The notes below the pieces were generated by a model. That model searched no databases. It had not been told where the DNA came from and saw nothing but the letters and a program-made list of their open reading frames with translations. Position numbers and translations under genes: made by a program. From contig CAWGBN010000006.1 of NCBI GenBank assembly GCA_963820825.1, positions 1-64,000 of the forward strand: a DNA stretch of 64,000 bases, given 5' to 3'. Source of the DNA: Vulcanimicrobiota bacterium (GTDB lineage: Bacteria > Vulcanimicrobiota > Vulcanimicrobiia > Vulcanimicrobiales > Vulcanimicrobiaceae). Shown here one piece after another: positions 5,277-24,573 of this stretch (its first letter is position 1; the number at the start of each line of letters is the position of its first letter).

Positions 5277-7187
5277 ATCGTCGAAAGATTTGCGTTCGCC
5301 TTAATCGCTCTGTTCGGTTCGATCGTCGCCATGGCGAAGGTCCCGGCCATTCCGAGTGTTGTTATCTCCCAGGCGAGCACTCCAACACCACCCGCGGTCA
5401 TACCAGCGTGGATTTTGGGCGGTGGCAACTTCTACGGCGGCCAACAATCGGGAGTCGCGCCCTGTCCGACGGGAGGCTGCTCATTTTACGATGTTGATCC
5501 CGGTTCGGATCCGGATAAGCACCTCTTTGCCGGGGTGATCGACGCAAGTGAGGCAACTCCATCGGCGTTGCCGAGCCACTGTCCGGGCATTGGCTCAGGC
5601 GGCAGCAATGTTTCGAACTGTAACCCCTATAAGTATGTTAACATCCTCTGGCCTCTTTGCGACACAAGCATCTCGCAGAGCGCGTTCGAATATCTTGACG
5701 GAAGCGATCCGGCAGGGTTTCTTCACGAATATGACAGCCACAGCGTGCGTTTCAACCTTGGCTTTAATAGTCTGTGCGGCTCGCCAATGCCCTCCCCGAC
5801 TCCGGCATATCCGGCTAACCCTGGGAACGCCAGTTATCTTAGTTGGCTGAGCACGAACGCATGGACGACCGCAAACTTCCCAACTCCGTACGGAATCCTT
5901 GAGGACAACTTTGGCGTTTCCGGCTACCCCTGTGGCGTTACCTACGAGTATGGTTCTACCAATAATGGCCCATGTAACATGGTGGGTGATGCTACGCCGT
6001 CTCCATCGCCGACGGATACCGACTGGGAATCGGCACTAGGATTATTCGCCGCCAACACCTGCGGTACGACGTGCTTCCAGTTTGCTGCAAACGGACTCAT
6101 GCCCGGTAACGGGTTAGACACGGGTTCCTGCAACAATATTGGAAGTGGGCAATGCTGGGTCACCGGAAGCGGCGGAGTCATAAGCGATGCTGACTCGATT
6201 GCGAACGTTTGTGCCAACGCTTCTTCTAGCGGAAACCTGCGGGCGATTGAGGCCGAGGAAGTGGTGTTTCTGAAAGGCAGTCCCGAACCATCGCCGGTTC
6301 CGTCCCCGACGCCGAGCATCACTCCAGTCTACGCCAAGACTCAGACCATCGTATACATGCTGAATACGATTAGCCAACTCGTCACGCATACGAGTGACGG
6401 TTGTAAGAACATGGTGGCCGTTGACATCGAAGCCGGTGGAGGTAGCTTCTATCCTCTCCTTGGCTACGGCCCAGGATCAGGTTCACCCAGCGCTGGGATC
6501 CCGGTTCGGTTGGAGGCCACGGCAATGCGCTTTCTTGTGCCGGATCCGGTAACGTTAGTCCCCGATCGCATCGTGCCGTTTTACTACACGATTGGCGGCA
6601 CGAACAATCACTGGGCGCCTAGCGATTCAGGGACTTCCTCTTGCAACTCAAGCCCATACTGCGAAGTGCCGTACTTCTTTGAGGAGACGTTGGTGCCCCA
6701 GGGCCCGGACGTATCGGTAGGGGCATTCTCATGGAACGGTTCAACCCAATCGGTAGGCGATGGCTGCCCATCAAATCCGGGCGACAGCGGCGGAGCAGTG
6801 GACCTGGTGGCGACCTGCGTTGGCATAGATGGATCAGCGGTCTTCCGGCAAGTGTATGATCACCTCTACATTGACGGCGAAGACTATGGTCCCGCGGCGG
6901 TCTTGCTGAATACGTCACCCGTAACGAGCGTTCCCATTGTCAGTTCGTGGTTTTCATGCACGGGATGCCACGGTATCTCGGCCTTCAACTACAAGTTAGC
7001 CCTTTCGGGAGGGGAACTACAGTCTGTAAATTATCCTGGCAGGCTTGTTCCGATTTCGCTACCGTGCACCCAAACGACGTACTGCAATGGTGACAATAGC
7101 GTCCCTGGGAACACATCCCCCTTCAGTTCAGGTAGCCCAGGCGGCATAGGTCCGCACAGCGGTATGATACTGCTTGCCTCGCATTAG
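5277..7187 (+). CDS. Cys-rich, Pro/Ser/Thr-linker secreted protein; paralog of 2698..4509 (ORF track start 5331, likely true start ATC 5277)
   Basis: GAGGAGGA SD at 5263-5270; in-frame ATC adds signal peptide VERFAFALIALFGSIVA; shared motifs with 2698..4509. Confidence 0.75.
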   Translation: MVERFAFALIALFGSIVAMAKVPAIPSVVISQASTPTPPAVIPAWILGGGNFYGGQQSGVAPCPTGGCSFYDVDPGSDPDKHLFAGVIDASEATPSALPSHCPGIGSGGSNVSNCNPYKYVNILWPLCDTSISQSAFEYLDGSDPAGFLHEYDSHSVRFNLGFNSLCGSPMPSPTPAYPANPGNASYLSWLSTNAWTTANFPTPYGILEDNFGVSGYPCGVTYEYGSTNNGPCNMVGDATPSPSPTDTDWESALGLFAANTCGTTCFQFAANGLMPGNGLDTGSCNNIGSGQCWVTGSGGVISDADSIANVCANASSSGNLRAIEAEEVVFLKGSPEPSPVPSPTPSITPVYAKTQTIVYMLNTISQLVTHTSDGCKNMVAVDIEAGGGSFYPLLGYGPGSGSPSAGIPVRLEATAMRFLVPDPVTLVPDRIVPFYYTIGGTNNHWAPSDSGTSSCNSSPYCEVPYFFEETLVPQGPDVSVGAFSWNGSTQSVGDGCPSNPGDSGGAVDLVATCVGIDGSAVFRQVYDHLYIDGEDYGPAAVLLNTSPVTSVPIVSSWFSCTGCHGISAFNYKLALSGGELQSVNYPGRLVPISLPCTQTTYCNGDNSVPGNTSPFSSGSPGGIGPHSGMILLASH

Positions 7188-8948: not shown

Positions 8949-9965
8949 TTGAACGCAGTACGCAGACAGGTAAAAAGCGCTCTTCTCTCCGCGTTTGCCC
9001 GCGTCGGGGTCGATCGACTCGGGGTCTCGTTGCACGTGCGCGATTCCCTCGTCCTGGTCTACCACGGAATCGTCGGCTCGGAGAAGCGCGAGCCGTTCCG
9101 CTATCATCATACGGTCGACGAGTTCGCCGTTCATCTCGAATGGCTCGGTACCCACTGCGAGCCGGTCGGGCTCGCCGATTTCACGCGCTGGAAGCGCGGT
9201 GAGTGGCGCCCTTCCAAGCCGCCCGCGCTCATAACCTTCGACGACGGCTACCGCAACAACGAAACGATCGCCGCGCCGCTCCTGGCTGCCAAGGGCTTCC
9301 CGGCGCTATTCTTTATCAATACTGGCTACGTCGGCGGCAAGCACGTTCTTTGGCCGGACGAGGTCTTCGTACGTGTCCTAGCCTGGACGGGTACGTCGCT
9401 CGAAGATCCCAGCGGTTCGGTCCGCGTCGTCACCACCGAAGCTCAAGAGCGCGAGCGGTTGGCATTCGATATGGTCGAGGCGTGCAAGAACTGCAGCGAC
9501 GACCGCCGTCTCGAGTTTATGGCTTACTTGGCGCGCGAGACCGCGCATTGCGACCCAATGGTCGACCCTGAAGCGCAAGAGATGCTCTCGTGGAGCGAGG
9601 TTGACGCGCTCGCCGCAGCGGGATTCGATCTCGGCTCGCATACGGTAACGCATCCCATTCTCAGCCGGCTATCGCCCGAGGCCTTGCGTGCCGAACTACG
9701 CGATAGCCGCGCCACGCTGGAAGAGCGGGCGGGCCGGCGATGCAACGCGCTGGCGTATCCCGGTGGCCGCTTGCACGACGTTACGGATGAGGTGCTCTCC
9801 GCAACTGCGGACGCCGGCTACGACTTAGCCTTTACGGTATCGGATCGCTGGTGCGACCGCGAGGCTCATCCGCTGCGGGTCGATCGAATGTCGACGCCCG
9901 GTCACGGCACCCACGCTACCTTCGCCTTGCACGCTAGCGGTTCGCGGCGCTGGTTTCCACGCTAG
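8949..9965 (+). CDS. Polysaccharide deacetylase (CE4/NodB)
   Basis: LVYHG, ITFDDGY, GSHTVTHPIL and LAYPGG motifs. Confidence 0.9.
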   Translation: MNAVRRQVKSALLSAFARVGVDRLGVSLHVRDSLVLVYHGIVGSEKREPFRYHHTVDEFAVHLEWLGTHCEPVGLADFTRWKRGEWRPSKPPALITFDDGYRNNETIAAPLLAAKGFPALFFINTGYVGGKHVLWPDEVFVRVLAWTGTSLEDPSGSVRVVTTEAQERERLAFDMVEACKNCSDDRRLEFMAYLARETAHCDPMVDPEAQEMLSWSEVDALAAAGFDLGSHTVTHPILSRLSPEALRAELRDSRATLEERAGRRCNALAYPGGRLHDVTDEVLSATADAGYDLAFTVSDRWCDREAHPLRVDRMSTPGHGTHATFALHASGSRRWFPR

Positions 9966-11382
9966 GAGCGTTTGGCGCTCTCGCGGGCAACTGCGCGCAT
10001 AAGCGCGCTGCAAGAAGCATCTCCGTAAACAATAACCACGAAAACTTCGTCTCGAGAACGTCGACGAAGAGCGCCGCGACCAAGAGCCCGACGAACGCCG
10101 CCCGCAACGGCGTGCCCAGCCAGGAGTAAGGCTGTCCGGGCTTGATCGATCGCAGGCTCCGGTATTGGAGAACCAGCGCCGCGATCGTGACGACGATTCC
10201 CACGACGCCGAGCTCGGTGGACGTCGAGATGATCAGACTGTGAGGCGCTCGAGTCCAGCCTGCGAATTGCGGCTCGTAAGCCATCAAGAATGCGCGATCG
10301 TACGCCGTAGAAAAAGCTCCGACGCCGTTGCCGAGCAGCCAGTGCTCGCGGAAAGTCTCAACCGCAACTCTCCAGATATCAAAACGCCCCGCCGCATTCA
10401 CCCCGCTCCGCTCCTCGAGGAAGCGCGATGCAATCTCGTTGGGAATGGCGAAAAAGAGCATTACCGCGCCGAAGAGCATCGAACCCAATGCGAACCGATA
10501 GCGGCTGGCGAGGATTGCGACGATCGCCATCGCGGCAAGCGCGAGCGTCGTGCCGCGTGAAGCGCTCAGATAGATCGCAGCAATCGGAAAGAATAGGACC
10601 GCCACCATTGCGATCCGGCGCCATGCGTTCGTTTTCACGATCGTCGCGACGGTCAAAGCAACCGGCAGCAGTAATGAGGCTCCAAACCGGTTGGGGTCGA
10701 GCGTCGCGGTTCCGAAGGTCAGGTACAGGCGTCCAACCTGACCGGCGACATTGGAGAGCTCGCTGCGCGCCATTACGATAGCGACGATTCCCGCGATGAC
10801 GCCGCTTGCGATCGTCGCGCCGACGATCGTGTCGAACTCTGCTGCTTCGAGCGGCACCGCCGCCAGAATGGCCATTAAGCCGAAAGTCGAAACCACCGTC
10901 CCCAAGTCTTGCGCGGATAACGCCGGATCGATCGTCCAACTCGTGCTCAGCGCCATCAATCCGACGAGCGCCGCCCAGCCGAATACCGCATACGGCACTT
11001 GCAGCTTCGCGCGCCTCTGCACGAGGAGGGCTACGGCCGCGAGCACCGCCGCGACACCCAATATCTTCCCGACGGTCAGTGATTGACCGACCAGTAGCGC
11101 GTCATCGATTGGAACGAGGACCGCGTAGAGCGAGAAGAACGCCACGAGCGGTCGCCTGGCGACGAAGTACGCCACGAGCGGAAGCGCGGCGATTCCGATG
11201 CCGAGCGGAACGCCCACGGACGACCTGCAGATGCCCGGGATCGCGAGCGGGGCGCTGCAGTCGCTCGCGGTCAGCGCGACGATGAGGCCGAGGAGCGCGC
11301 AGGCTGCGACGATCGTCGCTGCAAGAACTCCGACAAGCTTTACATCGTTGGAAGCGATCGTCGGCCGCACGCTCGTCGCCAT
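9934..11382 (-). CDS. wzy: O-antigen ligase / Wzy-like polymerase
   Basis: Multi-TM; DPNRFG, SASRG, GR..IW, GNGVG and PHS motifs of the Wzy_C family; ATG 11382 follows the flippase stop. Confidence 0.8.
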   Translation of the reverse strand: MATSVRPTIASNDVKLVGVLAATIVAACALLGLIVALTASDCSAPLAIPGICRSSVGVPLGIGIAALPLVAYFVARRPLVAFFSLYAVLVPIDDALLVGQSLTVGKILGVAAVLAAVALLVQRRAKLQVPYAVFGWAALVGLMALSTSWTIDPALSAQDLGTVVSTFGLMAILAAVPLEAAEFDTIVGATIASGVIAGIVAIVMARSELSNVAGQVGRLYLTFGTATLDPNRFGASLLLPVALTVATIVKTNAWRRIAMVAVLFFPIAAIYLSASRGTTLALAAMAIVAILASRYRFALGSMLFGAVMLFFAIPNEIASRFLEERSGVNAAGRFDIWRVAVETFREHWLLGNGVGAFSTAYDRAFLMAYEPQFAGWTRAPHSLIISTSTELGVVGIVVTIAALVLQYRSLRSIKPGQPYSWLGTPLRAAFVGLLVAALFVDVLETKFSWLLFTEMLLAARLCAQLPARAPNAPSVETSAANR

Positions 11383-11384
11383 GG

Positions 11385-12681
11385 TTAGCGCCCTCGTACC
11401 ACGCTCAAGCAACTCGTGAGCAACGCGTGATACGGCCGCAGATCCGCCCACGAGACGAGGAAGAGCTGCCTGGCGCGGTAGCCGGTGCGGCGCACAAAGT
11501 AGATCGCTGCGGCGGTGAAGGCCGCACTATACGAGATCGAGGTCGCGACTGCGGCGGCGATAACGCCGAAGCGGTGAAGCGTCAGCGCTGTGACGATGGC
11601 GCAAAGCGTTGCGGAGAGCGCGCTAAAGAAAGACGGCATCCACGGCCGGCCGAGCTGCTGCAAAAAGAACGCAGACAATGCCGGCATCATGCTGTAGGCG
11701 ACGATGCCGGGAAGCAGGGCAATGGTGACCACGGCTCCGTAGGCGAAGGCGGGACCGTAGACCAGCGGTACGAGAGTTCGAACCGAGAGGGCAACGCAGC
11801 CGGCGGCGAGAGAAACGAGCAGGAACGAGTGCCGCATGCATTTCGCGGTAACCTCGGCCGCCCTGGCTTCGTCCTTGCCGCCGATCTCCTTGAGCGCCGG
11901 ATTGATCATCGCGCTGCTCAACTGCCAGATAAACTCGCCGAGCGCGATCCCGATCGAATAGATTCCGAGCGCCGCACTCCCGAGCATGGCGATGACGAGA
12001 AAGACGTCGATGCGAAAGTCTAAATACTGCATGAGGCTGCTGAGACACGCCTGGCTACCGAAGGTCAACTGCTCCTTTGCAAGCCCCGCGACGTCGCCGC
12101 CCGGCGTCCCGCGGTAGTAACGTCGCAACGCGAATGCCGTGTACGCTCCGCCCACGACGTAGGCCGCCGACCATACCGTTAAGGGGACCCAAAGTTTGCC
12201 GTGCGCGAAGACGATCAGCGGAACGTAGATGGTCGTGGCGATCGCTGTGGGAAACATCGCTTGAACGTTGATCGGCCGCACGTTGCCGTCGCCGAGGAAC
12301 ATGCCCGTGGACGACTGCGAAAAGATCGCGAACGGCAGCGCCAGCGCGACGAAGAGCAACATCTGCTGCGAAGGAACGAACGCCGCAATTCGAAATTAGG
12401 GCCAAGACGATGGGCGCGCTCACCGAAGCGACCACGAGAATCATCACGCGGATGATCGCTGCCGCTGGAAGACCACGTCGAGCGTACTGCCAAAGGACGG
12501 CTTTATTGTGTCCGACGGTGGCCATGAGCGCGAACCCCATGATCGTCCCCAGGTACGTCCAGTCGCCCTTACCTGCCGGGCTTAGCACGCGGGCAATCGC
12601 GATGCCGCCGGCGGCCGCGAAGAGTTGTAGCGCGACGCGTGTGGCGAGCGTCTCAACGCTCTTTTTTGCTATCTCGCTCAT
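11385..12681 (-). pseudogene. wzx: Wzx-like oligosaccharide flippase with +1 frameshift near 12390 (real or sequencing error)
   Basis: N-half IARVLSPAGKG and C-half FRIDVFLV..LG.AALGIYS are in different frames; removing one A at TCG-A-ATT joins them. Confidence 0.8.
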
Positions 12682-12711: not shown

Positions 12712-14044
12712 CTACCTAGCTTCGGCGAGCGCCGAGGAAGCCGAGCTCCATTCGATGAGCGCCACGGTCGCCAACGTTACCAAGAGCGCGACGATCGCCA
12801 CCATGAAGAGCGCGAGCATTCGCGGCGGCTTGACGCTCGCCGAGCCGGGGTCGGCGTATTGGACGATGGAGAGGTCGCTAACGGCCATACTCTGGGCAAC
12901 GACCGCGTTGAAGTAGTTGCTTTGGATAGCATCGTAGATCGCTTCGGCCGATTTCGCTCGCCGCTGCAGCTCCGAGAGTGCCGAAATGTCGCCGGGGAAG
13001 ACGCGAAGCCGTACTAAGAGCGACGACTCCTGACTGCGTAACGCAGCGAGTTGCGCCGAGCTCCCGGCGATTTGTGCGCGCAGCGCCGCTTCCTGATTCG
13101 AAAGGCCCGCCTTGAGCGGATTCGGCTCGATCGTCGTCGACGTAACCCTCGTCTTCGGCAGAGCCTTCAAGGCCGATTCGAGGCTCTCGATTTGCTTCTC
13201 GGTTGCGACGACGTCGGGATACTTTTCGGTGAACTGCCGGCGCAGGAGGCTCAGCTCGAGCCTCTGTTGTGCCAGTTGCTGTTCGATTTGGTCGGCGGCC
13301 GGAGCAGTGCTGACGACCTTGCTTGAATCGATCGCCGCCGGAGCGGAGGCGACCTGCGAAGCGACGCTCGATAGCTGGGCTTGAGCCTGAGCGGCTTCGG
13401 CCTCGGCACTGCGTTCTTTCGACTGGATATCGCCGATCGCACTAAGAATGTTCGTCGTTTGGCTGGCGACGTCGGCGAGTTCGTGTTCCGATTCGAATCG
13501 CGTGAGCGCCGATTCCGCTCGTTGCAGGTCGCTACCCGCTTTCTTCAAGGCGATCGAGAGCGAGGCCGCGGCTTCCGAGGCTTGCGAGGCCGCGAGTATT
13601 CGCTGCTGCGCTATGAAGGCGCGAGCGAACTCGTTGGCAACCGTCGCGGAGTCTTCTGCGTCGTGCCAGTCGACGCTAATTTTTGACGAGATCGGAGTTC
13701 GTCACCGGCGTCACCACGACGTTCTTTGCGAGCATGTCTCGCGCCGTCGTTTTGAGGCCGAGGTTGCGAATGACTCGCTCGGCGACGGCCGGTTGGTGCG
13801 CGAGGGCGACGTAGGTCTCCATCGCGGTATCGCGGTTCCAAGTCAGGAGCGCGTCGATCTGCGGATAGGCCGTCGACGTAAGTGCGGTGTCGGGGCGTTT
13901 CACCAGCACCTCGCTGGCAGTCGAGTAGCTGCGAGGCAACACGAAGACGGCCGCGCTGCCGACGATCAGCAGCACGATGAAAAGCCCGATCGCTAAGCGG
14001 CGGCGGCGGCGAATCGAGGCGACGAGCGATGTAAGTTCGTACAC
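12712..14044 (-). pseudogene. Polysaccharide co-polymerase (Wzz/GumC-like, no kinase domain) with +1 frameshift in an A5 run at 13680-13684
   Basis: N-terminal TM then PRSYSTASEVLV; coiled coil with FTEKYPDVV; C-terminal P...P+TM; one extra A gives AAT-TAG instead of ATT-AGC-GTC. Confidence 0.8.
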
Positions 14045-14050
14045 GTGCGA

Positions 14051-14767
14051 TTATTTCGGTCCGCAGCAGATCCCGGCGGCCGGGTTGATGAGTAAGTAGA
14101 GATAGTAGAGCGCGAACGGAATGTTCGTTAGATTTGAGATATTGTACTGTCGCGCCTTCGGTACGTAGACCACGTCCCCCGGCTGCAAGACCGGATTCGA
14201 GGAATAATCGGCGTCGAGCAACGTTTTGTAGAGGTTGATGTTGTAGAGGTGCGGGGCGCCGTCGACGACGCGGTTGAGCGTGATGTGATTGAGATCGGCC
14301 GACGACGTGGGGCCAACGCCGGCCTTCGCGATGGCATCCGCGAGGCGGTCGCCTTGCCGCAGCTCGATCGAGCCGCCGTGATCGACGCTGCCGAGAACTT
14401 CGACCGTGGCCGGGGTTCCTTTTACGACGATGACGCTCACCGTCGGATGAATCACGTACGCGGCCAGCGCGGCGGCAATGCGCTGGCCGGCGGCGTCGGG
14501 CTGCAGGCCGCCCACGCTAATCGAACCGATGAGCGGATAGGTGATCGTTCCATCGCTGAGCACGGTCACCGTCTGCGAGAGCGCTTGGATCGCCGTCGTC
14601 GAGGGTTGCCCCTGCGACGGGACCTGGGGTACGCCTTGGGTACCGTATACGATGATCTGCAGTTGATCGTCGGCGCGAATGGCGTACGTGCTTGTCTGCG
14701 CTGCAGCGGCAGCCGGCGCGATTAGGCAAAACGCCAGCACGGCGGCTACGGCGGAACGAACCGACAT
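14051..14767 (-). CDS. wza: Polysaccharide export protein (Wza/OPX family)
   Basis: Signal peptide; Y.I...D.L.I.V, V.SDGTITYPLIG, SLBB domain, LQPGDVVYVP. Confidence 0.88.
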   Translation of the reverse strand: MSVRSAVAAVLAFCLIAPAAAAAQTSTYAIRADDQLQIIVYGTQGVPQVPSQGQPSTTAIQALSQTVTVLSDGTITYPLIGSISVGGLQPDAAGQRIAAALAAYVIHPTVSVIVVKGTPATVEVLGSVDHGGSIELRQGDRLADAIAKAGVGPTSSADLNHITLNRVVDGAPHLYNINLYKTLLDADYSSNPVLQPGDVVYVPKARQYNISNLTNIPFALYYLYLLINPAAGICCGPK

Positions 14768-14909: not shown

Positions 14910-15881
14910 CTAACGGCCTTCCCGCCCCGAGGGGCTCTCGGCGCCTCCCGGCGCGTATGGATCGCGCCCGAGCCGGCGGCGCACCTGATAGGCGGCCCAG
15001 CGCCACTCCAGCCGGCGATGCTGAGCCCGCGTAATCGTATACTCCCCCCGCTGCGCTTCGATACGACCGAGGACCGATTCCACGGGCGCGTACCATCCGT
15101 TACGCCCGGCGAGGTCTTCGAGCACCCGGATCACCCGCGGATCGACGCTTCCATCGCGAACGAAGCCGTCGGCGACGTGCGCGTAGACGATGCAGCAGCC
15201 GCCGGAGCGTTCGAGCTCGTCGACCCGCGCAGAGGAGAGCAGTCGTACGAATCGCTCCACGTCCGAACCATCGCTTGCCGAGAACCATCGCGCCGCGGCC
15301 GGACGACGTGGATCGTGGTAGGGCATCCACGGATCCTTGCGAGTCGTGATCGGGTCGTCGAAGTTAAAACCGCGGACGTAGCGCAACCTTTGAGCGCACA
15401 GATCGGCCCAATAGTACGGAGTCCCCGGCGTCGAGCCGAAGAAGCGACCGCGCCCCGAGAAACGCCGAAACATTTCACGCGCGATCGGATCGTCGAAGCG
15501 TTCCTCACCCCAGTAGAGCGACTCCGGATTGACGGCGTGGTTTGCGTAGGTTCGCGGATATGCGCCGAATATCTCGCGAAAACTCTCCAGCGCTTGCGCG
15601 TGCGCCGCCGTTTCGGTGCCTCCCGAGCGCGCGCCGTGCCAAGCGATTTCAAAGCCTTCTGCTTGGAGCTCGAGCGTCCACTGCCGATATGCCGAATCTT
15701 GCAGACTATCCGCTCGATAGGGATCGTCGGGCGGAGAATCGAGCACCCAGGCCGTCTTCGTGGTACGCAAGCCGTAGCGGATCAGGCCGTCGTAGAAGGG
15801 CTTAACGGCCTGCCAACGGGCGCGATCCGTATCGTCCATAATCGTGAAGGCGAATTTCTTGCCCTGCGGCCAGTGCGTCAT
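14910..15881 (-). CDS. Conserved hypothetical protein, NodB/deacetylase-like barrel
   Basis: FAFTIMDDTD, GFEIAWHG, ANH and YAH motifs resemble a CE4-like metal site; ATGA-coupled to the upstream gene. Confidence 0.6.
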   Translation of the reverse strand: MTHWPQGKKFAFTIMDDTDRARWQAVKPFYDGLIRYGLRTTKTAWVLDSPPDDPYRADSLQDSAYRQWTLELQAEGFEIAWHGARSGGTETAAHAQALESFREIFGAYPRTYANHAVNPESLYWGEERFDDPIAREMFRRFSGRGRFFGSTPGTPYYWADLCAQRLRYVRGFNFDDPITTRKDPWMPYHDPRRPAAARWFSASDGSDVERFVRLLSSARVDELERSGGCCIVYAHVADGFVRDGSVDPRVIRVLEDLAGRNGWYAPVESVLGRIEAQRGEYTITRAQHRRLEWRWAAYQVRRRLGRDPYAPGGAESPSGREGR

Positions 15882-16864
15882 GCTTCGCGGTTCGAAAGAA
15901 TTCCGAAAACCATGTGCATGTCGTACGGCTCGAGATCGATCTCGGCTAGCCGCTTCCGTGCCGAAATGTCGTATAAGGCGATGTGGCTCGGTTTTTCGGG
16001 GCCTTTAATCAAGTCCTTGACCCATTTGACGTTCTCTTTGAAGCGCGTCGTTCTCAGTCGCGTGAACCCTACCCAGACGTGCGATTCGTCCAGGACTAAG
16101 AGCCCGCGGCACCATCCGAGAATTGAGTGGTCCGCGTTGTCGATCTGGTTGAGCTCAACGACGCGCTCGGTCTCGAGCGTTTGCGCGTTCACCACCACGA
16201 TCGTTCCGTTCACCGTCGTGAAATAGATCTTTCCGCCATGGACTACCCCGTCGTGGCAGACCTCCTCTCCTACTGAAATCCGCGGCCCGGGCTCGGTCAG
16301 ACAGATCGCGTCGCTTTGATGACATCGCGTAACCCACAGGGCGCCGTTGCGAAAGAACGTGTAGTTCGGATGGGAGAGGTGCGGTTTCGTGGTCGGCACT
16401 TTGCGATAATCAACGTCGCGTGAGAACCGAACCCAGGGGCTTTCGCCGAGGACGCCCCACTCGCGCAGAGTCTTTCCCTCGGGGGTGACTTCCAAAACCA
16501 TGTCGAGTCCGGTATTCGTTACGATCAGATTTCCGCTGCCGGTCGGGCGCACGTGATGGACGTCGTTGAAACAGGGCAGCGAGAGGTGCCGCACGAGATC
16601 GAACCGGGGAAGCTCGTAGACGAGCGCCTCAGTCCGCGTGCACGTGTAGAGCCGATTTCCTTCCAGCGTGCCGCCCTCGAAACTGATCGAAGGCTCGACG
16701 TCCGGACACAAGGCGGGCGGCGTGATATATTCGGCGCACAGTTCGACCGAAGCGCGCTCGGGATCGACGCGCAGAATGATGGCCTTCTCGTAGGCCTCCC
16801 ACTCTCGCCGCGCCTTTAAACCGACGCGTTTTTGTGTAGCGCCGGTTACGTACAACATCGTCAC
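15878..16864 (-). CDS. Conserved hypothetical His-motif beta-propeller (DUF4915/TIGR03032-like)
   Basis: Short beta-strand repeats; NDVHH, HPN, HDG and GWCRGL motifs. Confidence 0.55.
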   Translation of the reverse strand: MTMLYVTGATQKRVGLKARREWEAYEKAIILRVDPERASVELCAEYITPPALCPDVEPSISFEGGTLEGNRLYTCTRTEALVYELPRFDLVRHLSLPCFNDVHHVRPTGSGNLIVTNTGLDMVLEVTPEGKTLREWGVLGESPWVRFSRDVDYRKVPTTKPHLSHPNYTFFRNGALWVTRCHQSDAICLTEPGPRISVGEEVCHDGVVHGGKIYFTTVNGTIVVVNAQTLETERVVELNQIDNADHSILGWCRGLLVLDESHVWVGFTRLRTTRFKENVKWVKDLIKGPEKPSHIALYDISARKRLAEIDLEPYDMHMVFGILSNREA

Positions 16865-16896: not shown

Positions 16897-17892
16897 TCAC
16901 CCGGTAAGAGCGGGTCGAGGTTTTCGCAGTCTCGCGAAGCCCCAGAGCCAACCGAATCCGAACGAAAGGTGCATGATGGCAATGGCGACCGGCTCCAAAA
17001 GCGCGATTCCGAGTCGCTTCGATCTGCGCAGACCGTCAATGAAGCCGATGGAAAGAAATCCGGCATAGAGCGCCGGCACGATGGCCGCCCAAATTCCGTA
17101 TCCGAGCAGGCCGAGAATTGCCGAAGCCGTCAAGCCGAGCAGCAGCGCCGGCGGGGCGTAAACCCGCCACGGGACCGAGCCCGGATGCTGTACTTCGGTC
17201 CAACGCCGATAGAAGCCGTAGCGAACGTATTGCCTCGCTAGTCCCAAGAACGATGGGCGCACGTAGTACGTTGCCTCGATTCCAGGGGAGACGAAGACCC
17301 GGTACCCGGCCTTGCGAAGGCGGTAGTTGAGCTCGCAATCTTCGTTCACGGCATTCGTCTCGTTGTAAAGACCGATCTCGTCGAAAATACGGCGCTCCAT
17401 GAACGTGCCCATAACGGAGTCGCACCATTGTTCCTGCTTCGTGTGGCGGTACTTCGAGTCGCCGACGCCGAGGGGGGAGGACATTGCAAGAGCGATCGCT
17501 TCGCCGGCCGGCCCTTCACCTCGATGAGAGACGACGCCTCCTACGTTCGCAGCGCCCGTGCGGGCTTTGACATCGAGGCAGCGTGCGAGGTAGGTCTTCG
17601 CAAATCGGGCGTGCGCGTGAATGACGCAGATGATCGAGCCCCGCGCCTCTTTGATCGCGAGATTATATCCGTAGACTTGATGGCGCCGGGGGTTCTCGAT
17701 CAGGCGTACGTTATGCTCGACGCCATACGATCGCACGATCTCCCGCGTCTTGTCGGTGCTGCCGCCGTCGGCAACCAAAACCTCGACGTCGGCATCGAGT
17801 CCCTCTTGGCCGAACATGTCGTCGAGCACCCCGCCAATGTAGCGCTCCTCGTTGAGGGTCGGGACGACGACGGAGATCGTAAGACCGGCCAT
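16897..17892 (-). CDS. Glycosyltransferase family 2 (ExoA-like)
   Basis: ISVVVPTLNEE, DGGSTD, NEDCELNYRL and RQY..YG motifs; C-terminal TMs; ATG overlaps the PPTase stop (TGATG). Confidence 0.9.
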   Translation of the reverse strand: MAGLTISVVVPTLNEERYIGGVLDDMFGQEGLDADVEVLVADGGSTDKTREIVRSYGVEHNVRLIENPRRHQVYGYNLAIKEARGSIICVIHAHARFAKTYLARCLDVKARTGAANVGGVVSHRGEGPAGEAIALAMSSPLGVGDSKYRHTKQEQWCDSVMGTFMERRIFDEIGLYNETNAVNEDCELNYRLRKAGYRVFVSPGIEATYYVRPSFLGLARQYVRYGFYRRWTEVQHPGSVPWRVYAPPALLLGLTASAILGLLGYGIWAAIVPALYAGFLSIGFIDGLRRSKRLGIALLEPVAIAIMHLSFGFGWLWGFARLRKPRPALTG

Positions 17893-18662
17893 CAAACTGC
17901 CTCCGAGATCGGTCTCGACGACGCGGCGCCGATGTCGGCGACGGCTCGCCATTGAAACGAGAGCGGTCTCTTGCAATCTTGCGCGAGCACCGCGACGGCA
18001 GCGACCTGGTGCGGACTCGGGCGGTGGAGAGAGAACGCGCAGCCCGCAGTCGAAATGGGCCGGCCGTCTTTGCGCTGCGCGACCGTGAGCCGTTCGCCGG
18101 CATGGGCCAACCCAGCTCCCGTCGCTTTGACGAACGCCTCTTTGAGCACCCATTGCTCGAAGAATCGATCGATCTGCACGTTCGACGGGAGCCCGGCGAG
18201 CCGCGCGCGCTCGCCGCGAGAAAAGAAGTGCCGCGCCACCAGCGCCACGTCGACGGGCTGCGAAGTATCCTCGGCATCGACGCCGGCCATCCCGGCGCGC
18301 GTGACGACGCAGATCGCCAAACCCTTGGTATGCGTGAGATTGAACTGCAGCGAAGCGAAACGCTCCGGTGCCGCTACCACCGGCTTGCCGTTGCGGCTCG
18401 TATCGAAGCGCCAGGTCCCCGGATCGACTCCGGTGTATCGCGAGAGCGTCGCGCGGCAGAGCACGCGCGCCGCGAGATACTCTTCGCGCATCTCATCGCT
18501 GAGAAACGATTCGTATTGCGCGCGCTCCTCGGCGGGCAGGCGCGCGAGCCACCGGTCTCGCACGGCGGGCGCGCGCAGCTGCTCGGTCCGCAGCTGCCAA
18601 GCATGCGCGGCCGTTGCGAGCTCCTCCCACTCGAGGCGGCTACTCGATGCTGGCATCGCCAT
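17892..18662 (-). CDS. 4'-phosphopantetheinyl transferase (Sfp-type)
   Basis: GKP, FNLTH, GVDAE and WVLKEAFVKATG motifs. Confidence 0.92.
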   Translation of the reverse strand: MAMPASSSRLEWEELATAAHAWQLRTEQLRAPAVRDRWLARLPAEERAQYESFLSDEMREEYLAARVLCRATLSRYTGVDPGTWRFDTSRNGKPVVAAPERFASLQFNLTHTKGLAICVVTRAGMAGVDAEDTSQPVDVALVARHFFSRGERARLAGLPSNVQIDRFFEQWVLKEAFVKATGAGLAHAGERLTVAQRKDGRPISTAGCAFSLHRPSPHQVAAVAVLAQDCKRPLSFQWRAVADIGAASSRPISEAV

Positions 18663-19785
18663 CGTATTCGCCGGGATCCCAAAACTTTTTTCGGCGCAAC
18701 TCGACTGCAAGCGTGGGGTCGACGGCGCGGTAAAAGTACGACCAGTTCTGCTTTCGGCGGTATGGAGCGAGCGCGTCGAAAGCGGCCGTTCGAGCTACCC
18801 CGGCTCCGGGTTTGTCGAGAACGCACACGTCTTCCGCGACGCATTTTCGCTGCGCCGCCGCGAGCAAGTCCGGAAGGAGATCGACGTCCCGCTCGATGCT
18901 CTGAAAATCGACCAGGCGCATGCGGCGAACCTCTCCGGTGGCGCCTTGACGCTTGAAGATGCCGTACGCCCGAAGCTGGCGATTCTGCGACGCGGTTAAG
19001 ATCCACAGACGTCCCCGGCGCATCGGTACCGAAAAGTGCCACGAGAGCGTCGCACTATCTCGTGCCGCCATCAGCGTGTTGGGGTTTTGACGCAGCAGCT
19101 CGTCCCAGAACGTATCGAAGCGCGAATCGAACCGGTCGGTCGATTCGACGTCGAATGCGGAGCGCGTCTTGGGGAAGTCCCGGCTCAAGACGAGGTCCTT
19201 TAGCCGCAGCGCGGCGCCGGCGGGGGGCGCGAGAACCCGTACGAGCGGCACGTTGAGCTTCTGCAACGCCCTGGTCGCGAAGGCGCGATAGCCCGTGACG
19301 AAATAGGAGATCGTCTCCCAATCGCCGGCCGGAATGCGGTTCGAAAATTCGTTGAATGCCGCTAACGCTGCCGGTCCGATGGTCGTATCGACGAAGACGT
19401 CCACGCACGGTTGATTGAACCGCTCGTCGAGGAGCCAGAGCGCGTAACCGCGATACTCGGGTGCGACCACCCACCCCCGTCCGCTCGCCGCCATAAGGTG
19501 CTCGCCGCGAAAGTGATAGAGCAGCGGAATGTTACCGATGCAGCCGACGATCTGCCGGTCGGCGGTCTCCAGCACCCACCCGATCGGCCATCGCTTACCG
19601 AGATGCGGCCAAAGCGGACTCCCATGCCAGAGCATGCGCCAGTCGTCCGGAGACGAGGCTTCCGGAGTGAGTGCCGCCTCTAAGCGTACGATCTGTTCGT
19701 AGTCGTCGAAACGCGCGGGCCGCAGGTGCGGACGCGCGCGTCCCGGCATCTGCGGCAACTCGGCCCTCGCGAGATTCGCGCTCAT
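18640..19785 (-). CDS. GNAT-fold acyl/aminoacyl transferase-like protein (tandem GNAT)
   Basis: LRPA..DDYEQI, IVGCIG, WVVAPEYRG (GNAT motif A), second half RD...L.W; C-terminal DGD; ATGA-coupled to the P450. Confidence 0.6.
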   Translation of the reverse strand: MSANLARAELPQMPGRARPHLRPARFDDYEQIVRLEAALTPEASSPDDWRMLWHGSPLWPHLGKRWPIGWVLETADRQIVGCIGNIPLLYHFRGEHLMAASGRGWVVAPEYRGYALWLLDERFNQPCVDVFVDTTIGPAALAAFNEFSNRIPAGDWETISYFVTGYRAFATRALQKLNVPLVRVLAPPAGAALRLKDLVLSRDFPKTRSAFDVESTDRFDSRFDTFWDELLRQNPNTLMAARDSATLSWHFSVPMRRGRLWILTASQNRQLRAYGIFKRQGATGEVRRMRLVDFQSIERDVDLLPDLLAAAQRKCVAEDVCVLDKPGAGVARTAAFDALAPYRRKQNWSYFYRAVDPTLAVELRRKKFWDPGEYDGDASIE

Positions 19786-21020
19786 GACGCCGCTTCGTAT
19801 CGAAGCGGAAGCGCCACCAAACCGCGCAGACCGAGATTTTCGCGCCAGACGAGCTCCTCGCTCGCCAGCTCGAGCGCCGAGAACCGGCGCAGAAGCGCCT
19901 CGAAAGCAACCTGCGCTTCGATGCGCGCCAACGGCGCTCCGAAGCAAAAATGCGCGGCCCATCCGAACGCGAGATGACGGTTATCCTCACGGTCGAAGTT
20001 GAGGCGATCCGGATCGGGAAAACGCTCCGGATCGCGGTTCCCCGCAGCCATCACCGCGATAACCGCCTGCCGCTTGCGAATTCGCTTCCCACCCAGAACG
20101 ACGTCGTCGGGGGCTAAGCGCGCCGTATGCTGGCTGGGGCTTTCGTACCGCAGCAGCTCCTCGACCGCGGCGGGCATGATCTCCGCGTCATCGCGCAGCC
20201 GCGCGAGCGCGGCGGGATTGCGCAAGAGCGTCAGCATGCCGTTCCCGATCAGATTCGTCGTCGTCTCCTGGCCGCCGACCATCGTGACGATGCAATTGGC
20301 GATGATCTCTTCATCGGTCAGGCGGTCTCCGTCGACTTCGCTGGACAGCAGCGATTGAATCAAACCTTCGCGCGGACGTTTGCGTTGTTCGCGAAGCGCC
20401 GCTTCGAAGTACCCGGTCAGCTTTTCGACGGCGTCCAGCACCGAGTCCAACTGATCGGGATTGTGCTGAAAGTTTCCCAGCATTCCCGCGAAGGTCGCCG
20501 ACCAGTCTTTGAGCGTGCGATGATCCTCCACCGGCACGCCGAGCATCTCCGCCGTAACGATTGCCGGAAGCGGCTCGGCAAAGTCTGCCAGTAGATCCAT
20601 GCGTCCGGTGCCGCGCGCGATCGCCTCGTCGATGAGCCCCTCGGCGATCTTTTCGATGTGACCGCGAAGCGCGCGCACGCGCGCCGGCATGAAGGCCGGA
20701 GCCGCGAGCTTGCGCAAGCGCGTATGTGCCGGTGGATCGAGAAAGAGCATCTGCTTGACCATGACCTTCGCGACCGGCCCGACGTGTGGTGCTCCCAACG
20801 CTTCGAAAAACTGCGGCGAGGGAGCCCGGTCGGCCGAATAGCGCGTCAAAACGGTCACGACGTCTTCGTATCGAGTGACGACCCAAGCGTGCAGATAGGG
20901 ATCCCAGTGCACCGGCGCCTCTTCGCGTAATCGGCGATAGAGCGGATAAGGGTCGGCGAGTACGTCCGGATCGAGCAGGTGATAGAGACTCAGCGGCGTT
21001 TCGGCCGCATTTTCGGTCAT
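19782..21020 (-). CDS. Cytochrome P450
   Basis: DPPAHTRLR, GGQETT, EELLR, NRDP..F..PD and FGWAAHFCFG heme motif; ATGA-coupled to the NRPS stop. Confidence 0.95.
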   Translation of the reverse strand: MTENAAETPLSLYHLLDPDVLADPYPLYRRLREEAPVHWDPYLHAWVVTRYEDVVTVLTRYSADRAPSPQFFEALGAPHVGPVAKVMVKQMLFLDPPAHTRLRKLAAPAFMPARVRALRGHIEKIAEGLIDEAIARGTGRMDLLADFAEPLPAIVTAEMLGVPVEDHRTLKDWSATFAGMLGNFQHNPDQLDSVLDAVEKLTGYFEAALREQRKRPREGLIQSLLSSEVDGDRLTDEEIIANCIVTMVGGQETTTNLIGNGMLTLLRNPAALARLRDDAEIMPAAVEELLRYESPSQHTARLAPDDVVLGGKRIRKRQAVIAVMAAGNRDPERFPDPDRLNFDREDNRHLAFGWAAHFCFGAPLARIEAQVAFEALLRRFSALELASEELVWRENLGLRGLVALPLRYEAAS

Positions 21021-22861
21021 CGAGGCACGCATTCTCGGGCATCCGCGCGCATCAAACGCGCAACTTCCTTGGCGAGTTCGCGCACCGTCGGCGCGTCGAA
21101 AACCTGCCGAAGCGGCAGTTTCACGTCGAATGCTTCGCGGATGCGCGCCACGAGCTGCACGCCGAACATCGAATGCCCGCCGATCATGAATAGGTTCTCG
21201 TCGACGTCGATGGCCGGCCGGCCCATCAGCACCGCCACGAGCCCGGCGATTTGCTCCTCGAGGTCGGTCATTTTGCCGTTGGCCGCGGACTTCGGCATCA
21301 GATTATCGGCGCGCGGCACCGGCAGGGCCGCTTTGTCGAGCTTGCCGTTCGACATGACCGGCAAAGCCGGAATCGAGACGAAGAATGCGGGGATCATGTA
21401 GCTCGGGAGTTTCGCAGCGAGATAATCGCGCAGCTCGGATTCCGTCGGCTGCGCGTCGGCGACCGGAACGACGTAAGCCGCCAGCGCGGGTCCGCCGGCC
21501 GGATCGTCGACCAGCGAAACGGTGGCGGCAGCGATCGCAGGATGCCGGCTTAGGCACGCATCGATCTCGCCCGGCTCGATACGGTAACCGCGGATCTTGA
21601 CCTGATCGTCGAAGCGTCCGAGAAATTCGAGCTCGCCGTTCTCCCGCGAACGTACGCGATCGCCCGTGCGATACAGGCGCAGCGATTCACCCGATGCGGT
21701 GATGTACGTAACGAAACGTCTCGCGGTGAGCTCGGGCATGTTGCGATATCCCCGCGCTAGGAGCGGACCGCCGATGCAGAGCTCGCCCCACTCGCCCGCA
21801 GCGACCGGACGCAACGCCTCGTCGAGAACCATCGCCGTTGCGTTGTCTATCGGCCGGCCGATTGTGGGCGCGACCGCATCTCCTTCGCCCGGCGCAACTG
21901 CGCCCGACGTCGCAACCACCGTGCATTCCGTGGGGCCGTAGTTGTTGACAACCGCAAACGGCAATCCAGCCGGCGGCCGGCGCAAGAGCGCGTCGCCGCC
22001 GGTCAACAGCACGCGCAGCGCGGCATCTGCGGGCCACTGCACGCGGAACAATTGCTCGGCCATCACCGTGGGTATGAAGCCGATCGTAATCTTCTGCTCC
22101 ACGATCCAGTCGCGAAGCAGTTCGGGCGCACGCCGCGTCGCTTCGTCGGCGATGTGCAGGCTCGCGCCTGCGGTAAGGTAGGGCCAAATCTCCCAAGCCG
22201 CGGCATCGAACCCAAGGCCGGCGACCTGACTCGCGCGATCGAACGCGGAGACCGCAAAGGCCGATTGGTGCCAATCGATCAAGTTGCAGAGGCCGGCATG
22301 CGATACCTCGACGCCCTTGGGCTGCCCCGTCGTGCCCGAGGTATAGATGACGTACGCGAGCGTTTTCGAATCGATATCCGCCGCCGCGAAGGCCGGGCCG
22401 CTCGCGCTCGGGCGGTCGACCGCGAAGACCGGCCACGGCGCCTGCGCGAACTGCGTCGCAAAGCGCGCGCCGGTGACGAGCGCAACGATGCCGGCATCGG
22501 CAAGAATCGCCGCGATCCGGTCGTCGGGCGTAGAGGGATCGAGGGGTACGTACGCCGCGCCGGCCTTCAGCGCCGCCAGTGCCCCGACGACGAAGTGCGT
22601 CGAACGCTCCAGTAGCAGCCCGACGCAGCGTTCCGGCCCGGCACCGGCCGCCCGCAGGCCCGCCGCAAGCCGGTTCGCTTCGCGTTCGAGCTCGGCATAC
22701 GTCAGACGCCGCAGCTCGTCGCTCACGGCGATCTTACTGGGCGTCGCGCCGGCATGGGACGCGATGCGACTGGGAATCGAACGCGTCGCAGCCGCATGAG
22801 CGGATCGCATGCTGCCGGCTTCTTCCGAGCGCGGTCCCGTGCGCGAGCGGATTATCTCCAT
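21017..22861 (-). CDS. Stand-alone NRPS adenylation-PCP didomain (Leu-type code DAWFLGNVVK)
   Basis: LTYAEL, AYVPLDP, YTSGTTGQPKG, YGPTE, GELCIGG, YRTGD and NGKLD cores; PCP GGHS; no C or TE domain; AGGAG SD before ATG 22861. Confidence 0.93.
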   Translation of the reverse strand: MEIIRSRTGPRSEEAGSMRSAHAAATRSIPSRIASHAGATPSKIAVSDELRRLTYAELEREANRLAAGLRAAGAGPERCVGLLLERSTHFVVGALAALKAGAAYVPLDPSTPDDRIAAILADAGIVALVTGARFATQFAQAPWPVFAVDRPSASGPAFAAADIDSKTLAYVIYTSGTTGQPKGVEVSHAGLCNLIDWHQSAFAVSAFDRASQVAGLGFDAAAWEIWPYLTAGASLHIADEATRRAPELLRDWIVEQKITIGFIPTVMAEQLFRVQWPADAALRVLLTGGDALLRRPPAGLPFAVVNNYGPTECTVVATSGAVAPGEGDAVAPTIGRPIDNATAMVLDEALRPVAAGEWGELCIGGPLLARGYRNMPELTARRFVTYITASGESLRLYRTGDRVRSRENGELEFLGRFDDQVKIRGYRIEPGEIDACLSRHPAIAAATVSLVDDPAGGPALAAYVVPVADAQPTESELRDYLAAKLPSYMIPAFFVSIPALPVMSNGKLDKAALPVPRADNLMPKSAANGKMTDLEEQIAGLVAVLMGRPAIDVDENLFMIGGHSMFGVQLVARIREAFDVKLPLRQVFDAPTVRELAKEVARLMRADARECVPR

Positions 22862-22915: not shown

Positions 22916-24346
22916 TTAGTACCAGCGCTGGAACAGCACTTCAACCCCGGTCTTAAACGTAATGAAGATGTCGAGGATCGGCGAGTAGTTTTCGATGTAG
23001 AATAGATCGAGATCGAGCCGCTCTCCGATCATCTCGAGTCCGGGGCTACGACGCATGTGGACGTGAGCCCAGCCGGTAATGCCGGGGCGCACCAAGTGGC
23101 GCTCGTCGTATCGCGCGTGCTCGTCACGGAAGCGCTCGACGAAGACGGGCCGCTCGGGACGCGGCCCGACGATCGACATCTCGCCGCGGAGAACGTTGAT
23201 GAACTGCGGAAGCTCGTCGATGCTGGTCTTGCGAATGAACGCTCCGACCTTCGTCGTGCGGTTGTCCTTGACCGGATCGCCGATTGCCCAGACGGGACCG
23301 CACTTCACTTCGGCGTCCTGCACCATCGAACGCAGCTTGAGTATCTCGAAGGGCTTTCCGGCTCGCCCCACACGCGTTTGACGGTAGACGACCGGACCAC
23401 CCGACTCTAGATAGATCGCGAGCATCGCCGCCAACATGATCGGGCCGGTCAGCACCAGGGCTATGGAAGAAACGACGATATCGAAGATTCGCTTCAATGC
23501 GAGGTTGACCGGCTTGCACGCGGCGACGCGCCCGGCGATGAGCACCGGTTGGCGTTGCGACCCCAGCACGCCTAACGGCCCGGCCTGCGGCGAGAATCCG
23601 GGCGGAGCGAAGCCGATCGTGATGTTATCGCGCGCCGCGCGCTCGACGAGGAGTGCGGTGCTCACGCTCGGCATGCCGGCAAATATGATCTCGTCGCACC
23701 CCTGCGCTTTGACCCGATCGTACCAGGACGCCGCAGAGACGTCGGCCGCGGCCTTGATGGCCCTTTCCGTCTTCTGCATCGGGACGAGGCGCAGCGAGAT
23801 CGAGCTCGCATCGAAGGCTCGGGCCATCGGACTGAGATATTCGGGAGGCGCGACCAGCGCGATGCGGCGTTTGTGCCGTTCGCGGTTCATCTTGAAACGC
23901 CCGTGGATGAGCGAACGGCCCGTCCCGACGAGAACGACCGAGATCGCGAAGGAAGCCAGCAGTACGAGCCGCGAGCTCGACAACGACGGGACGATGCTGA
24001 ACAGTATCAACAGCGGCGCGACACCCGTCGTCAATCCAAGGATGACATTGTACCATTCGTCTTTGCCATCGAGCGCGTACGAGATGCGATAGAGTCCAAG
24101 CACCTTGAACGTTACGATCGAACCAGCGGCCCAGATCACGGCCGATTGGACGACGCGTTCGTAATCGAGCTGATCGTTGAGAGAGACGACGCACCACACG
24201 GCGAGAAACGACGCAATGGCGAGCATGAGGAGGTCGCTGAAAAATAACGCGGAGGCCCTACCGAATTCGAAGGTCTGGATGGCGCGGCTGCGCTCGGATG
24301 CTCGCGGCGGCGAGTGGGCTGCGACGGCCAGGTCGGGCAACGCCAT
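22916..24346 (-). CDS. Priming glycosyltransferase (polyprenyl-phosphate glycosylphosphotransferase, WcaJ/GumD-like)
   Basis: 4-5 TMs; KRIFD, KLRSM, RKTSIDELPQFINVLRGEMSIVGPRPE and RPGITGWA motifs. Confidence 0.93.
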   Translation of the reverse strand: MALPDLAVAAHSPPRASERSRAIQTFEFGRASALFFSDLLMLAIASFLAVWCVVSLNDQLDYERVVQSAVIWAAGSIVTFKVLGLYRISYALDGKDEWYNVILGLTTGVAPLLILFSIVPSLSSSRLVLLASFAISVVLVGTGRSLIHGRFKMNRERHKRRIALVAPPEYLSPMARAFDASSISLRLVPMQKTERAIKAAADVSAASWYDRVKAQGCDEIIFAGMPSVSTALLVERAARDNITIGFAPPGFSPQAGPLGVLGSQRQPVLIAGRVAACKPVNLALKRIFDIVVSSIALVLTGPIMLAAMLAIYLESGGPVVYRQTRVGRAGKPFEILKLRSMVQDAEVKCGPVWAIGDPVKDNRTTKVGAFIRKTSIDELPQFINVLRGEMSIVGPRPERPVFVERFRDEHARYDERHLVRPGITGWAHVHMRRSPGLEMIGERLDLDLFYIENYSPILDIFITFKTGVEVLFQRWY

Positions 24347-24539: not shown

Positions 24540-24573
24540 ATTATGCACCAGTTTTGTTAACGCGTCAACAAAA
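24540..24573 (-). promoter_or_regulatory. Sigma70-type promoter of the polysaccharide operon, overlapped by a 22-bp palindrome
   Basis: TTGACG-N17-CATAAT on the minus strand; TTTTGTTAACGCGTCAACAAAA (24552-24573) has one mismatched pair. Confidence 0.7.

Follow-up and report, generated by a model that had tools for sequence, protein, structure and literature searches.

The cassette and its operon

The subject of this analysis is a cassette of four genes, reminiscent of a fragment of a nonribosomal peptide synthetase (NRPS), in a 64,000-nucleotide stretch of DNA from a Vulcanimicrobiota bacterium (assembly GCA_963820825.1, contig CAWGBN010000006.1, positions 1 to 64,000; hereafter the window). 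A preliminary description of this stretch had placed the four genes in a 12-gene Wzx/Wzy-type run on the minus strand, flanked by its priming and family 2 glycosyltransferase (GT2) genes, and we confirm both their coordinates and this arrangement. The cassette comprises a stand-alone didomain of adenylation (A) and peptidyl carrier protein (PCP) domains (21017-22861), a CYP107-like cytochrome P450 (19782-21020, with an alternative start at 21032), a tandem-GNAT acyltransferase of 381 amino acids from an unnamed family (18640-19785) and an Sfp-type 4'-phosphopantetheinyl transferase (PPTase, 17892-18662). The tight coupling that had been reported is also borne out: A-PCP and P450, and likewise P450 and GNAT, are joined by ATGA, the GNAT and PPTase genes overlap by 17-23 nt, and the PPTase runs into the GT2 gene through TGATG. 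The gap between the priming gene and the A-PCP gene measures 54 nt and carries an AGGAG ahead of the A-PCP ATG. The cassette is a real, conserved and uncharacterised module, which may represent a new variant of carrier-dependent glycan acylation.

The run, all of it on the minus strand, begins with the priming polyprenyl glycosylphosphotransferase (PGT, 22916-24346; PF02397 at 209 bits, TIGR03025 at 347 against a cut-off of 296), and is followed by the four cassette genes and the GT2 glycosyltransferase with its C-terminal membrane segments (16897-17892; PF00535, 77 bits). Next come a predicted beta-propeller (15878-16864), which has no Pfam match over cut-off and looks like the TIGR03032/DUF4915 proteins according to an Atlas lead whose recognition lies below that tool's mark, and a deacetylase-like open reading frame (ORF, 14910-15881) with a weak NodB/CE4 resemblance (chitin deacetylase at E 0.082; DUF2334 in 18 of 69 homologues), for which the profile searches give only weak hints and the single-sequence structure model was unusable (predicted local distance difference test, pLDDT, 37.7). 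The remaining genes encode the polysaccharide export protein Wza (14051-14767; PF02563, 69 bits), a frameshifted Wzz-type co-polymerase (12712-14044; TIGR03007 at 79 bits, below cut-off), a frameshifted Wzx flippase (11385-12681; PF01943 and PF13440) and a membrane protein of the Wzy/O-antigen-ligase family (9934-11382; PF04932, 58 bits). The parts of a Wzx/Wzy-dependent pathway, namely priming glycosyltransferase, Wzx, Wzy-family protein, co-polymerase and Wza, are thus all present at the locus. Convergent to this run, on the plus strand, lies a CE4 polysaccharide deacetylase (8949-9965; PF01522, 78 bits) with intact TFDDG and HTVTH motifs and no signal peptide. The GC content of the cassette (0.64-0.65) is the same as the window mean (0.638), on which ground we reject a recent foreign insertion.

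A leucine-coded carrier pair and a tandem GNAT

To place the cassette in a wider context, we scanned GTDB genomes with the window P450 and analysed the best 80 of at least 564 relatives (at least 600 pattern matches), a set spanning Eremiobacterota, Planctomycetota, Acidobacteriota, Actinomycetota, Rokuibacteriota, Pseudomonadota, Verrucomicrobiota and Chloroflexota; the nearest relatives are labelled Candidatus Cybelea / Eremiobacterota. In 78 of these 80 loci an A-PCP gene lies upstream of the P450, and the remaining two start at a contig end. The A-PCP protein of the window is well supported (AMP-binding 261 bits, PP-binding 53 bits, TIGR01733 at 406 against a cut-off of 317; carrier motif GGHS). 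Its specificity code was read by motif from ten pocket positions; the same ten positions in LgrA module 1 gave what we take to be the LgrA valine code. The window code, DAWFLGNVVK, recurs exactly in 68 of 77 readable A domains from several phyla (three differ at one position and six are partial or split; one further A domain was left unread). One paper names this code as the leucine pocket of four laxaphycin modules (PMC7524897), and another puts it at the head of the Leu/Ile/Val codes most often seen (PMC12283262). Judged from these sequences, A-PCP and P450 form a conserved pair that bears a leucine code.

The P450 (PF00067, 108 bits) retains its heme cysteine (FGWAAHFC) and the ET pair of the I-helix (GGQETT), and its identity across phyla amounts to 58-88%; in plasmids no match was found at 1e-100. 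Stand-alone A-PCP and P450 pairs are familiar from NovH/NovI, NikP1/NikQ and BpsD/OxyD, which the window resembles in the coupling of an A-PCP didomain to a P450 and in the probable oxidation of a carrier-bound amino acid. The window differs from them in its leucine code, its tandem-GNAT partner and its polysaccharide-operon setting. Its P450 also finds its nearest solved relatives among CYP107-type enzymes, BioI and PksS, with neither OxyD nor P450sky among the best 60 of 105 PDB matches. Moreover, the genome that holds the window (G000; 2.98 Mb, 85% complete) yielded neither a type II thioesterase nor a peptide assembly line. The preliminary description had seen no condensation (C) or thioesterase (TE) domain in the window, which proved correct and extends to the genome: no C domain match and no TE over cut-off were found in G000, the single sub-cut-off TE match lying on another contig. 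We therefore reject a canonical NRPS assembly line there, no C domain having been found in this 85% complete genome. The window PPTase (ACPS PF01648 and AASDHPPT_N PF22624) is the only PF01648 match in this genome, which has two carrier domains, the cassette PCP and one acyl carrier protein (ACP). In a survey of 301 genomes of the phylum, searched for the P450, the GNAT and the beta-propeller, the P450 occurs in 20, the GNAT in 22, both in 19 and the beta-propeller in 12; since no C domain was found in 18 of the 20 cassette genomes, no peptide partner is evident.

The third cassette protein has no match in Pfam (E 0.01), NCBIfam or a PDB profile search. Only folding revealed what it is: a model built with 114 homologues (pLDDT 92.7) shows a tandem GNAT with two lobes, which matches N-myristoyltransferase (NMT) at Z 21.1 (root-mean-square deviation 4.4, 316 aligned residues), the tandem GNAT 7q3a at Z 19.4, Eis at Z 17-18 and FemX at about 13. 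The earlier GNAT label thus stands on this predicted NMT/Eis-like fold and on some relatives that match Acetyltransf_9, but not on any Pfam or NCBIfam match of the protein itself. The family is large and unannotated, with 554 representatives at E under 1e-30.

Several features of this family bear on the origin of the acyl group. The acyl-CoA P-loop of GNATs follows the consensus Q/RxxGxG/A (PMC4964394), which the N-terminal lobe does not match, its loop being shortened to R-G-Y-A (R-G-x-A); an R-x-x-G is found in 22 of 224 matched homologues (269 examined). Ten homologues exceed 667 amino acids, and nine of them contain a carrier domain: seven are C-A-PCP-TE-GNAT and two KS-ACP-GNAT proteins, the tenth being an Acetyltransf_6-GNAT fusion. 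Further fusions in the family combine FAAL-like and ACP domains with a GNAT and, in one protein, a CE4 deacetylase with a GNAT. Complex prediction for the GNAT and the PCP gave 0.58 against 0.05 for the best control, with runs agreeing on at least 92% of contacts and a partner pLDDT of at least 79; among the pairs used for calibration, 116 of the 157 solved ones passed the mark, as did 2 of the 215 mismatched ones, but passes at scores of 0.60 or less comprised only 18 of the solved pairs and both mismatches, so that we count this model as weak support. Taken together, the fold, the shortened CoA loop, the carrier fusions and the predicted complex point to a GNAT that uses a carrier-bound donor. 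A second GNAT type, at locus L216, has a pairwise match to the window protein over only 44 residues. At four loci of congeners (L121, L123, L125 and L152) extra tandem-GNAT paralogues lie just upstream of the PGT gene in divergent orientation, with the cassette 20-30 kb away.

Linkage to polysaccharide genes and a proposed route

The association of the cassette with polysaccharide genes reaches well beyond the window. Twelve of the 20 cassette genomes in the phylum have a PF02397 gene no more than 30 kb from the P450 (distances measured by hand), compared with 0.92 expected, and in two more wza/wzx/wzy genes are found within the same distance. Two different polysaccharide systems carry the association in the phylum, the window-type operon and a second that includes GT4s, Wzc and a GINT1-like protein, and it is seen in Acidobacteriota, Planctomycetota and Actinomycetota as well. 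Defining a core polysaccharide gene as PGT, wza, wzz, wzc, wzx, wzy or wecG, we found one within 10 kb in 27 of the 80 loci (one a weak call), and any glycan gene under generous labels in 47; these counts combine 68 listed loci with 12 unlabelled loci scored by hand, and 20 of the loci are shorter than 18 kb. For comparison, 92 of 5581 21-kb windows of G000 (1.6%) hold a core gene, a background that is too low for richer genomes. Among 80 metagenome loci picked by the GNAT instead, 56 have carrier-type and 37 glycan genes, and for the 23 of at least 10 kb the figures are 19 and 18. An unselected sample of 301 genomes yielded four acidobacterial loci, one of them directly behind a PGT gene in a polysaccharide operon; in the 20 kb fetched around the other three there was no core polysaccharide gene.

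We infer from these observations an accessory tailoring module, in which an oxidised leucyl group would pass from the PCP to a deacetylase-exposed amine of a Wzx/Wzy polysaccharide precursor, and we give this reading a probability of about one half. As in its family generally, the PPTase would first prime the PCP, whereupon the A domain, going by its code, would activate L-leucine and load it as a thioester. The P450, to judge by its linkage to the didomain, would oxidise the leucine on the carrier, with the beta carbon as the default site and a ferredoxin encoded elsewhere as the electron source. A cytoplasmic CE4 deacetylase, for which the convergent gene at 8949-9965 is the candidate, may free the amine of an N-acetylhexosamine on a lipid-linked repeat or a nucleotide sugar, and the tandem GNAT would then move the acyl group from the PCP to form an amide with that amine. 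The carrier-domain fusions support the carrier-dependence of this last step. The cassette enzymes are all predicted to be cytoplasmic, the GNAT having no signal peptide, and transfer must therefore precede flipping by Wzx. The resulting polysaccharide would carry hydroxyleucyl amides, each of which contributes a free alpha-amine together with a hydrophobic side chain. C-domain proteins would, in other phyla, replace the GNAT or add a second residue.

The same transfer could also end elsewhere: on a glycolipid anchor, on a protein, or on a glycoprotein glycan that the O-antigen-ligase-like protein attaches. Alternatively, the changes made to leucine by the P450 could go beyond a single hydroxylation. 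The 'wzy' product, which matches PF04932 and, below cut-off, the TIGR03097 and TfpM ligase models, would suit such an acceptor, as would the one to four GNAT matches per genome that accompany a single A-PCP in the phylum, and the absence of OxyD and P450sky from the best 60 of the 105 P450 matches would allow a deeper oxidation. We nevertheless regard this alternative as improbable: Wza and Wzz in the same run suggest an exported polymer, and no conserved gene for an acceptor protein adjoins the cassette.

A number of observations weigh against the proposed attachment of oxidised leucine to the polysaccharide. Compared with the closest relative, L040, wzz and wzx carry one-base frameshifts (near 13680, in a run of A, and near 12381), which reflect either an assembly error or a real loss of the polymer; the former is plausible, because split genes also occur in many long-contig relatives. 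No amino-sugar aminotransferase was found in the window locus. The link to polysaccharide genes that had been proposed is upheld by the strong enrichment, but in 53 of the 80 loci core polysaccharide genes are missing from the nearest 10 kb, and 33 lack any glycan gene even under generous labels; kin among the counted loci are not independent, so the enrichment ratios overstate. The position of the cassette is variable too. Of the 12 genomes with the window-type operon, two (G000 and G183) hold it between PGT and GT2, an arrangement also seen at locus L044, while five have it elsewhere in the island and two on another contig. The other three (G125, G132 and G154, 93-96% complete) keep the operon and an intact GNAT, but neither A-PCP and P450 nor a second carrier turned up in them; the GNAT there has either another donor or is a leftover. 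These three lead us to reject the idea that the cassette is essential for the operon, and G141, conversely, has the cassette without a window-type operon.

One could accordingly speculate that the cassette is what remains of a truncated NRPS, or else a passenger that gathers in variable surface-glycan islands and is functionally unrelated to the polysaccharide. Its patchy presence in 20 of 301 genomes, its shifting position, the loss of A-PCP and P450 in three congeners and the C-type relatives outside the window P450 clade would all fit. This we consider very improbable in view of the near-invariant specificity code, the conservation of the P450 between phyla, the translational coupling into the operon, and a clade of 36 rows, starred in a quick P450 tree and including the window P450, in which 35 rows have a GNAT and none a C domain.

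Outside that clade the partner of the A-PCP/P450 pair changes: across the 80 loci it is the GNAT alone in 38, C-domain proteins alone in 34, both in four and neither in four. The C-type partners, present in 38 loci in all, take the form of C-A-PCP-TE proteins, truncated C-A proteins or stand-alone C domains, and many come with a second A domain and a TE, which points to a dipeptide product at those loci and speaks against a general role in polysaccharide tailoring. The motif reads HQxxxDG in 7 of 46 C domains. Stand-alone C domains with this reading adjoin the P450 in L077, L078, L083, L089, L091, L096 and L107; they lack the catalytic histidine and are possibly P450-docking domains. In several actinomycetotal loci (L092, L100, L103, L104, L106 and others) a second carrier system adjoins the C-type cassette and wzx/wzy, consisting of a seryl-tRNA-synthetase-like amino acid-ACP ligase (NF005479, over cut-off), an ACP, an AcpS and an alpha/beta hydrolase.

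This partner exchange, together with the fold of the GNAT, bears on a further alternative, namely that the cassette produces a small molecule or an aminolipid, for instance a short peptide or an N-acyl-hydroxyleucine. In that case the GNAT would acylate the amine of carrier-bound leucine, and the product would act together with the polysaccharide at the cell surface but have no bond to it. NMT acylates the amine of glycine, and the NMTs, as the best fold matches of the GNAT, act on the amine of an amino acid rather than of a sugar, which counts against a sugar acceptor. In favour of this alternative, the FAAL-like-ACP and KS-ACP fusions show that lipid-type donors occur in the family, and the GNAT is retained where a fatty-acid-type ACP is the sole carrier found; the C-A-PCP-TE partners imply a released dipeptide, and glycan genes are not nearby at many loci. 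On balance we think this explanation unlikely, as G000 offers no TE over cut-off for product release, and as it leaves unexplained both the CE4 deacetylase-GNAT fusion and the repeated slot directly behind PGT in different phyla.

The preliminary description had favoured polysaccharide tailoring over a peptide antibiotic, while holding that it would be refuted if homologous cassettes mostly had C-domain partners or lay away from polysaccharide genes. Both are found in part of the family at large, as counted above, but the objection does not extend to the window's own P450 clade, which has no C domain. The tailoring proposal gains from the conserved leucine-code pair, the carrier and CE4 fusions and the enrichment; it loses from the family-wide C partners and the accessory nature of the cassette, and the attachment itself is still something that we infer. 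We consider it quite possible, and offer it tentatively, that there is a cross-phylum, NRPS-derived pathway that joins leucine, once oxidised by the P450, through an amide bond to Wzx/Wzy polysaccharides by means of unnamed, NMT-like, carrier-dependent tandem GNATs, which would replace C domains and would also pass the cargo of acyl, polyketide and peptidyl carriers to deacetylated sugars.

Some individual loci merit mention. In L233 (8032-13575, genome G463) a single frame of 1847 codons encodes P450, C, A, PCP and TE, and lies behind PGT and A-PCP in an acidobacterial wza/wzz/wzc/wzx operon. Directly upstream of the Pseudonocardia cassette at L063 sit a GT4 gene and, with it, WbqC-like, PIG-L and CE4 deacetylase genes. 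Rhodococcus yunnanensis NBRC 103083 (L101), the sole cultured type strain in the 80 loci, shows the order A-PCP, P450, C-A-PCP-TE, followed by a GH6, a GT4 and a weak MatE-like gene; it has the C-domain form, and the 80 loci include no cultured strain of the GNAT type. A second, FAAL-P450-PKS-like unit adjoins the cassette at L158, a metagenome contig that may be chimeric, its first ORFs (317-2760) presumably resembling F-plasmid vector genes.

Related systems and neighbouring features

The proposed route shares elements with several known systems. In Nod factor synthesis the deacetylase NodB frees the amine of an amino sugar and the acyltransferase NodA moves an acyl group from the NodF carrier. 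By analogy, the window may likewise combine a deacetylase with a GNAT-like enzyme that moves an acyl group from a dedicated carrier onto an amino sugar, but here an oxidised amino acid carried by a PCP would serve as donor, the tandem GNAT has no NodA match, and the acceptor pathway is of the Wzx/Wzy type. The tandem GNAT HfsK of the Caulobacter holdfast is proposed to acylate amines exposed by the cytosolic deacetylase HfsH, and its donor is given as unknown (PMC5362036). The likeness lies in a cytosolic deacetylase and a tandem GNAT within a Wzx/Wzy-type system, and the difference in that HfsK is FemX-like, whereas the window GNAT has no Acetyltransf_6 match and has its own donor-making enzymes. 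Membership in this HfsK/Fem-like family was rejected, as PF13480 gave no match at E 0.01; Acetyltransf_6 genes are present separately in related islands.

The Dlt system (DltA/DltC/DltB/DltD) D-alanylates a surface polymer, and has in common with the window the use of an adenylation domain and a carrier to aminoacylate a surface polymer. In the window, by contrast, the carrier is fused, the code is for leucine, a P450 is present, and the bond would be a cytoplasmic amide, as opposed to the extracytoplasmic ester of Dlt. DltA models reach 220-228 bits against cut-offs of 476-560, and with the leucine code this led us to reject Dlt membership; no MBOAT (DltB) or DltD was found among the locus genes, to which the search was limited.

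Amino sugars are aminoacylated by BtrI/J/O/H in butirosin formation, and in the streptothricins the task can fall to a C domain or to an enzyme with a GNAT fold. Both the butirosin enzymes and the streptothricin-type Sbb17 move an amino acid onto an amino-sugar amine, as proposed for the window, and the alternation of C domain and GNAT in the streptothricins resembles the partner exchange across cassette loci. These systems, however, make small molecules, and Sbb17 (PDB 9wqx, with streptothrisamine) uses aminoacyl-tRNA; its match to the window GNAT has Z 12.2 and a root-mean-square deviation of 5.7 over 255 aligned residues. Finally, in the type B flagellin peptidylamido-glycan of C. difficile an amino acid is described as amide-linked to an amino sugar, and the glycosylation locus has a D-alanine ligase as well as a putative acyltransferase (PMC5207245). 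It is alike in placing such an amide on a surface glycan and differs in being protein-linked, with no P450, and with no NRPS named in that description.

A cassette of this combination was not found in the open literature, subscription papers and supplements being outside that scope. If the proposed route is correct, it would add a new polysaccharide substituent, oxidised leucine, made by a new route with an NRPS carrier and a P450, and a large GNAT family that lacks annotation would gain a function. The acyl donor of tandem GNATs in polysaccharide loci becomes testable, as the donor-making enzymes here adjoin the transferase, and the four cassette enzymes are soluble, so that reconstitution would be possible without culturing the host. 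Genome-mining tools would label such loci orphan NRPS clusters and seek the wrong product. Should the broad cross-phylum version hold, peptidyl- and acyl-tailoring of exopolysaccharide would be common in uncultured soil bacteria.

Elsewhere in the window, a GT4 glycosyltransferase with a Pfam match (1517-2701, plus strand) directly adjoins the cassette in congeners, and a metallophosphoesterase, likewise recognised by Pfam (63-1436, minus strand), is another neighbour of the cassette there. Positions 2698-4509 and 5331-7187 encode two paralogous Cys/Gly-rich proteins of about 600 amino acids without a Pfam match; most congeners have two to three copies of them in this same island. Upstream of the operon lies a sigma-70-like promoter candidate (24540-24568, minus strand; TTGACG-17-CATAAT, 10/12), recorded for its position only, since promoter and terminator counts in the window are at chance level (two sites of the promoter pattern against 2.6 in shuffles). 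The operon beta-propeller has a second, stand-alone copy in G000, 65% identical (contig C2, 17530-18543), as it does in G183. On contig C8 of G000, at about 314000-371000, a tandem array holds some 27 matches to a phosphoesterase family (PF04185-like), of which many further copies are spread over the genome.

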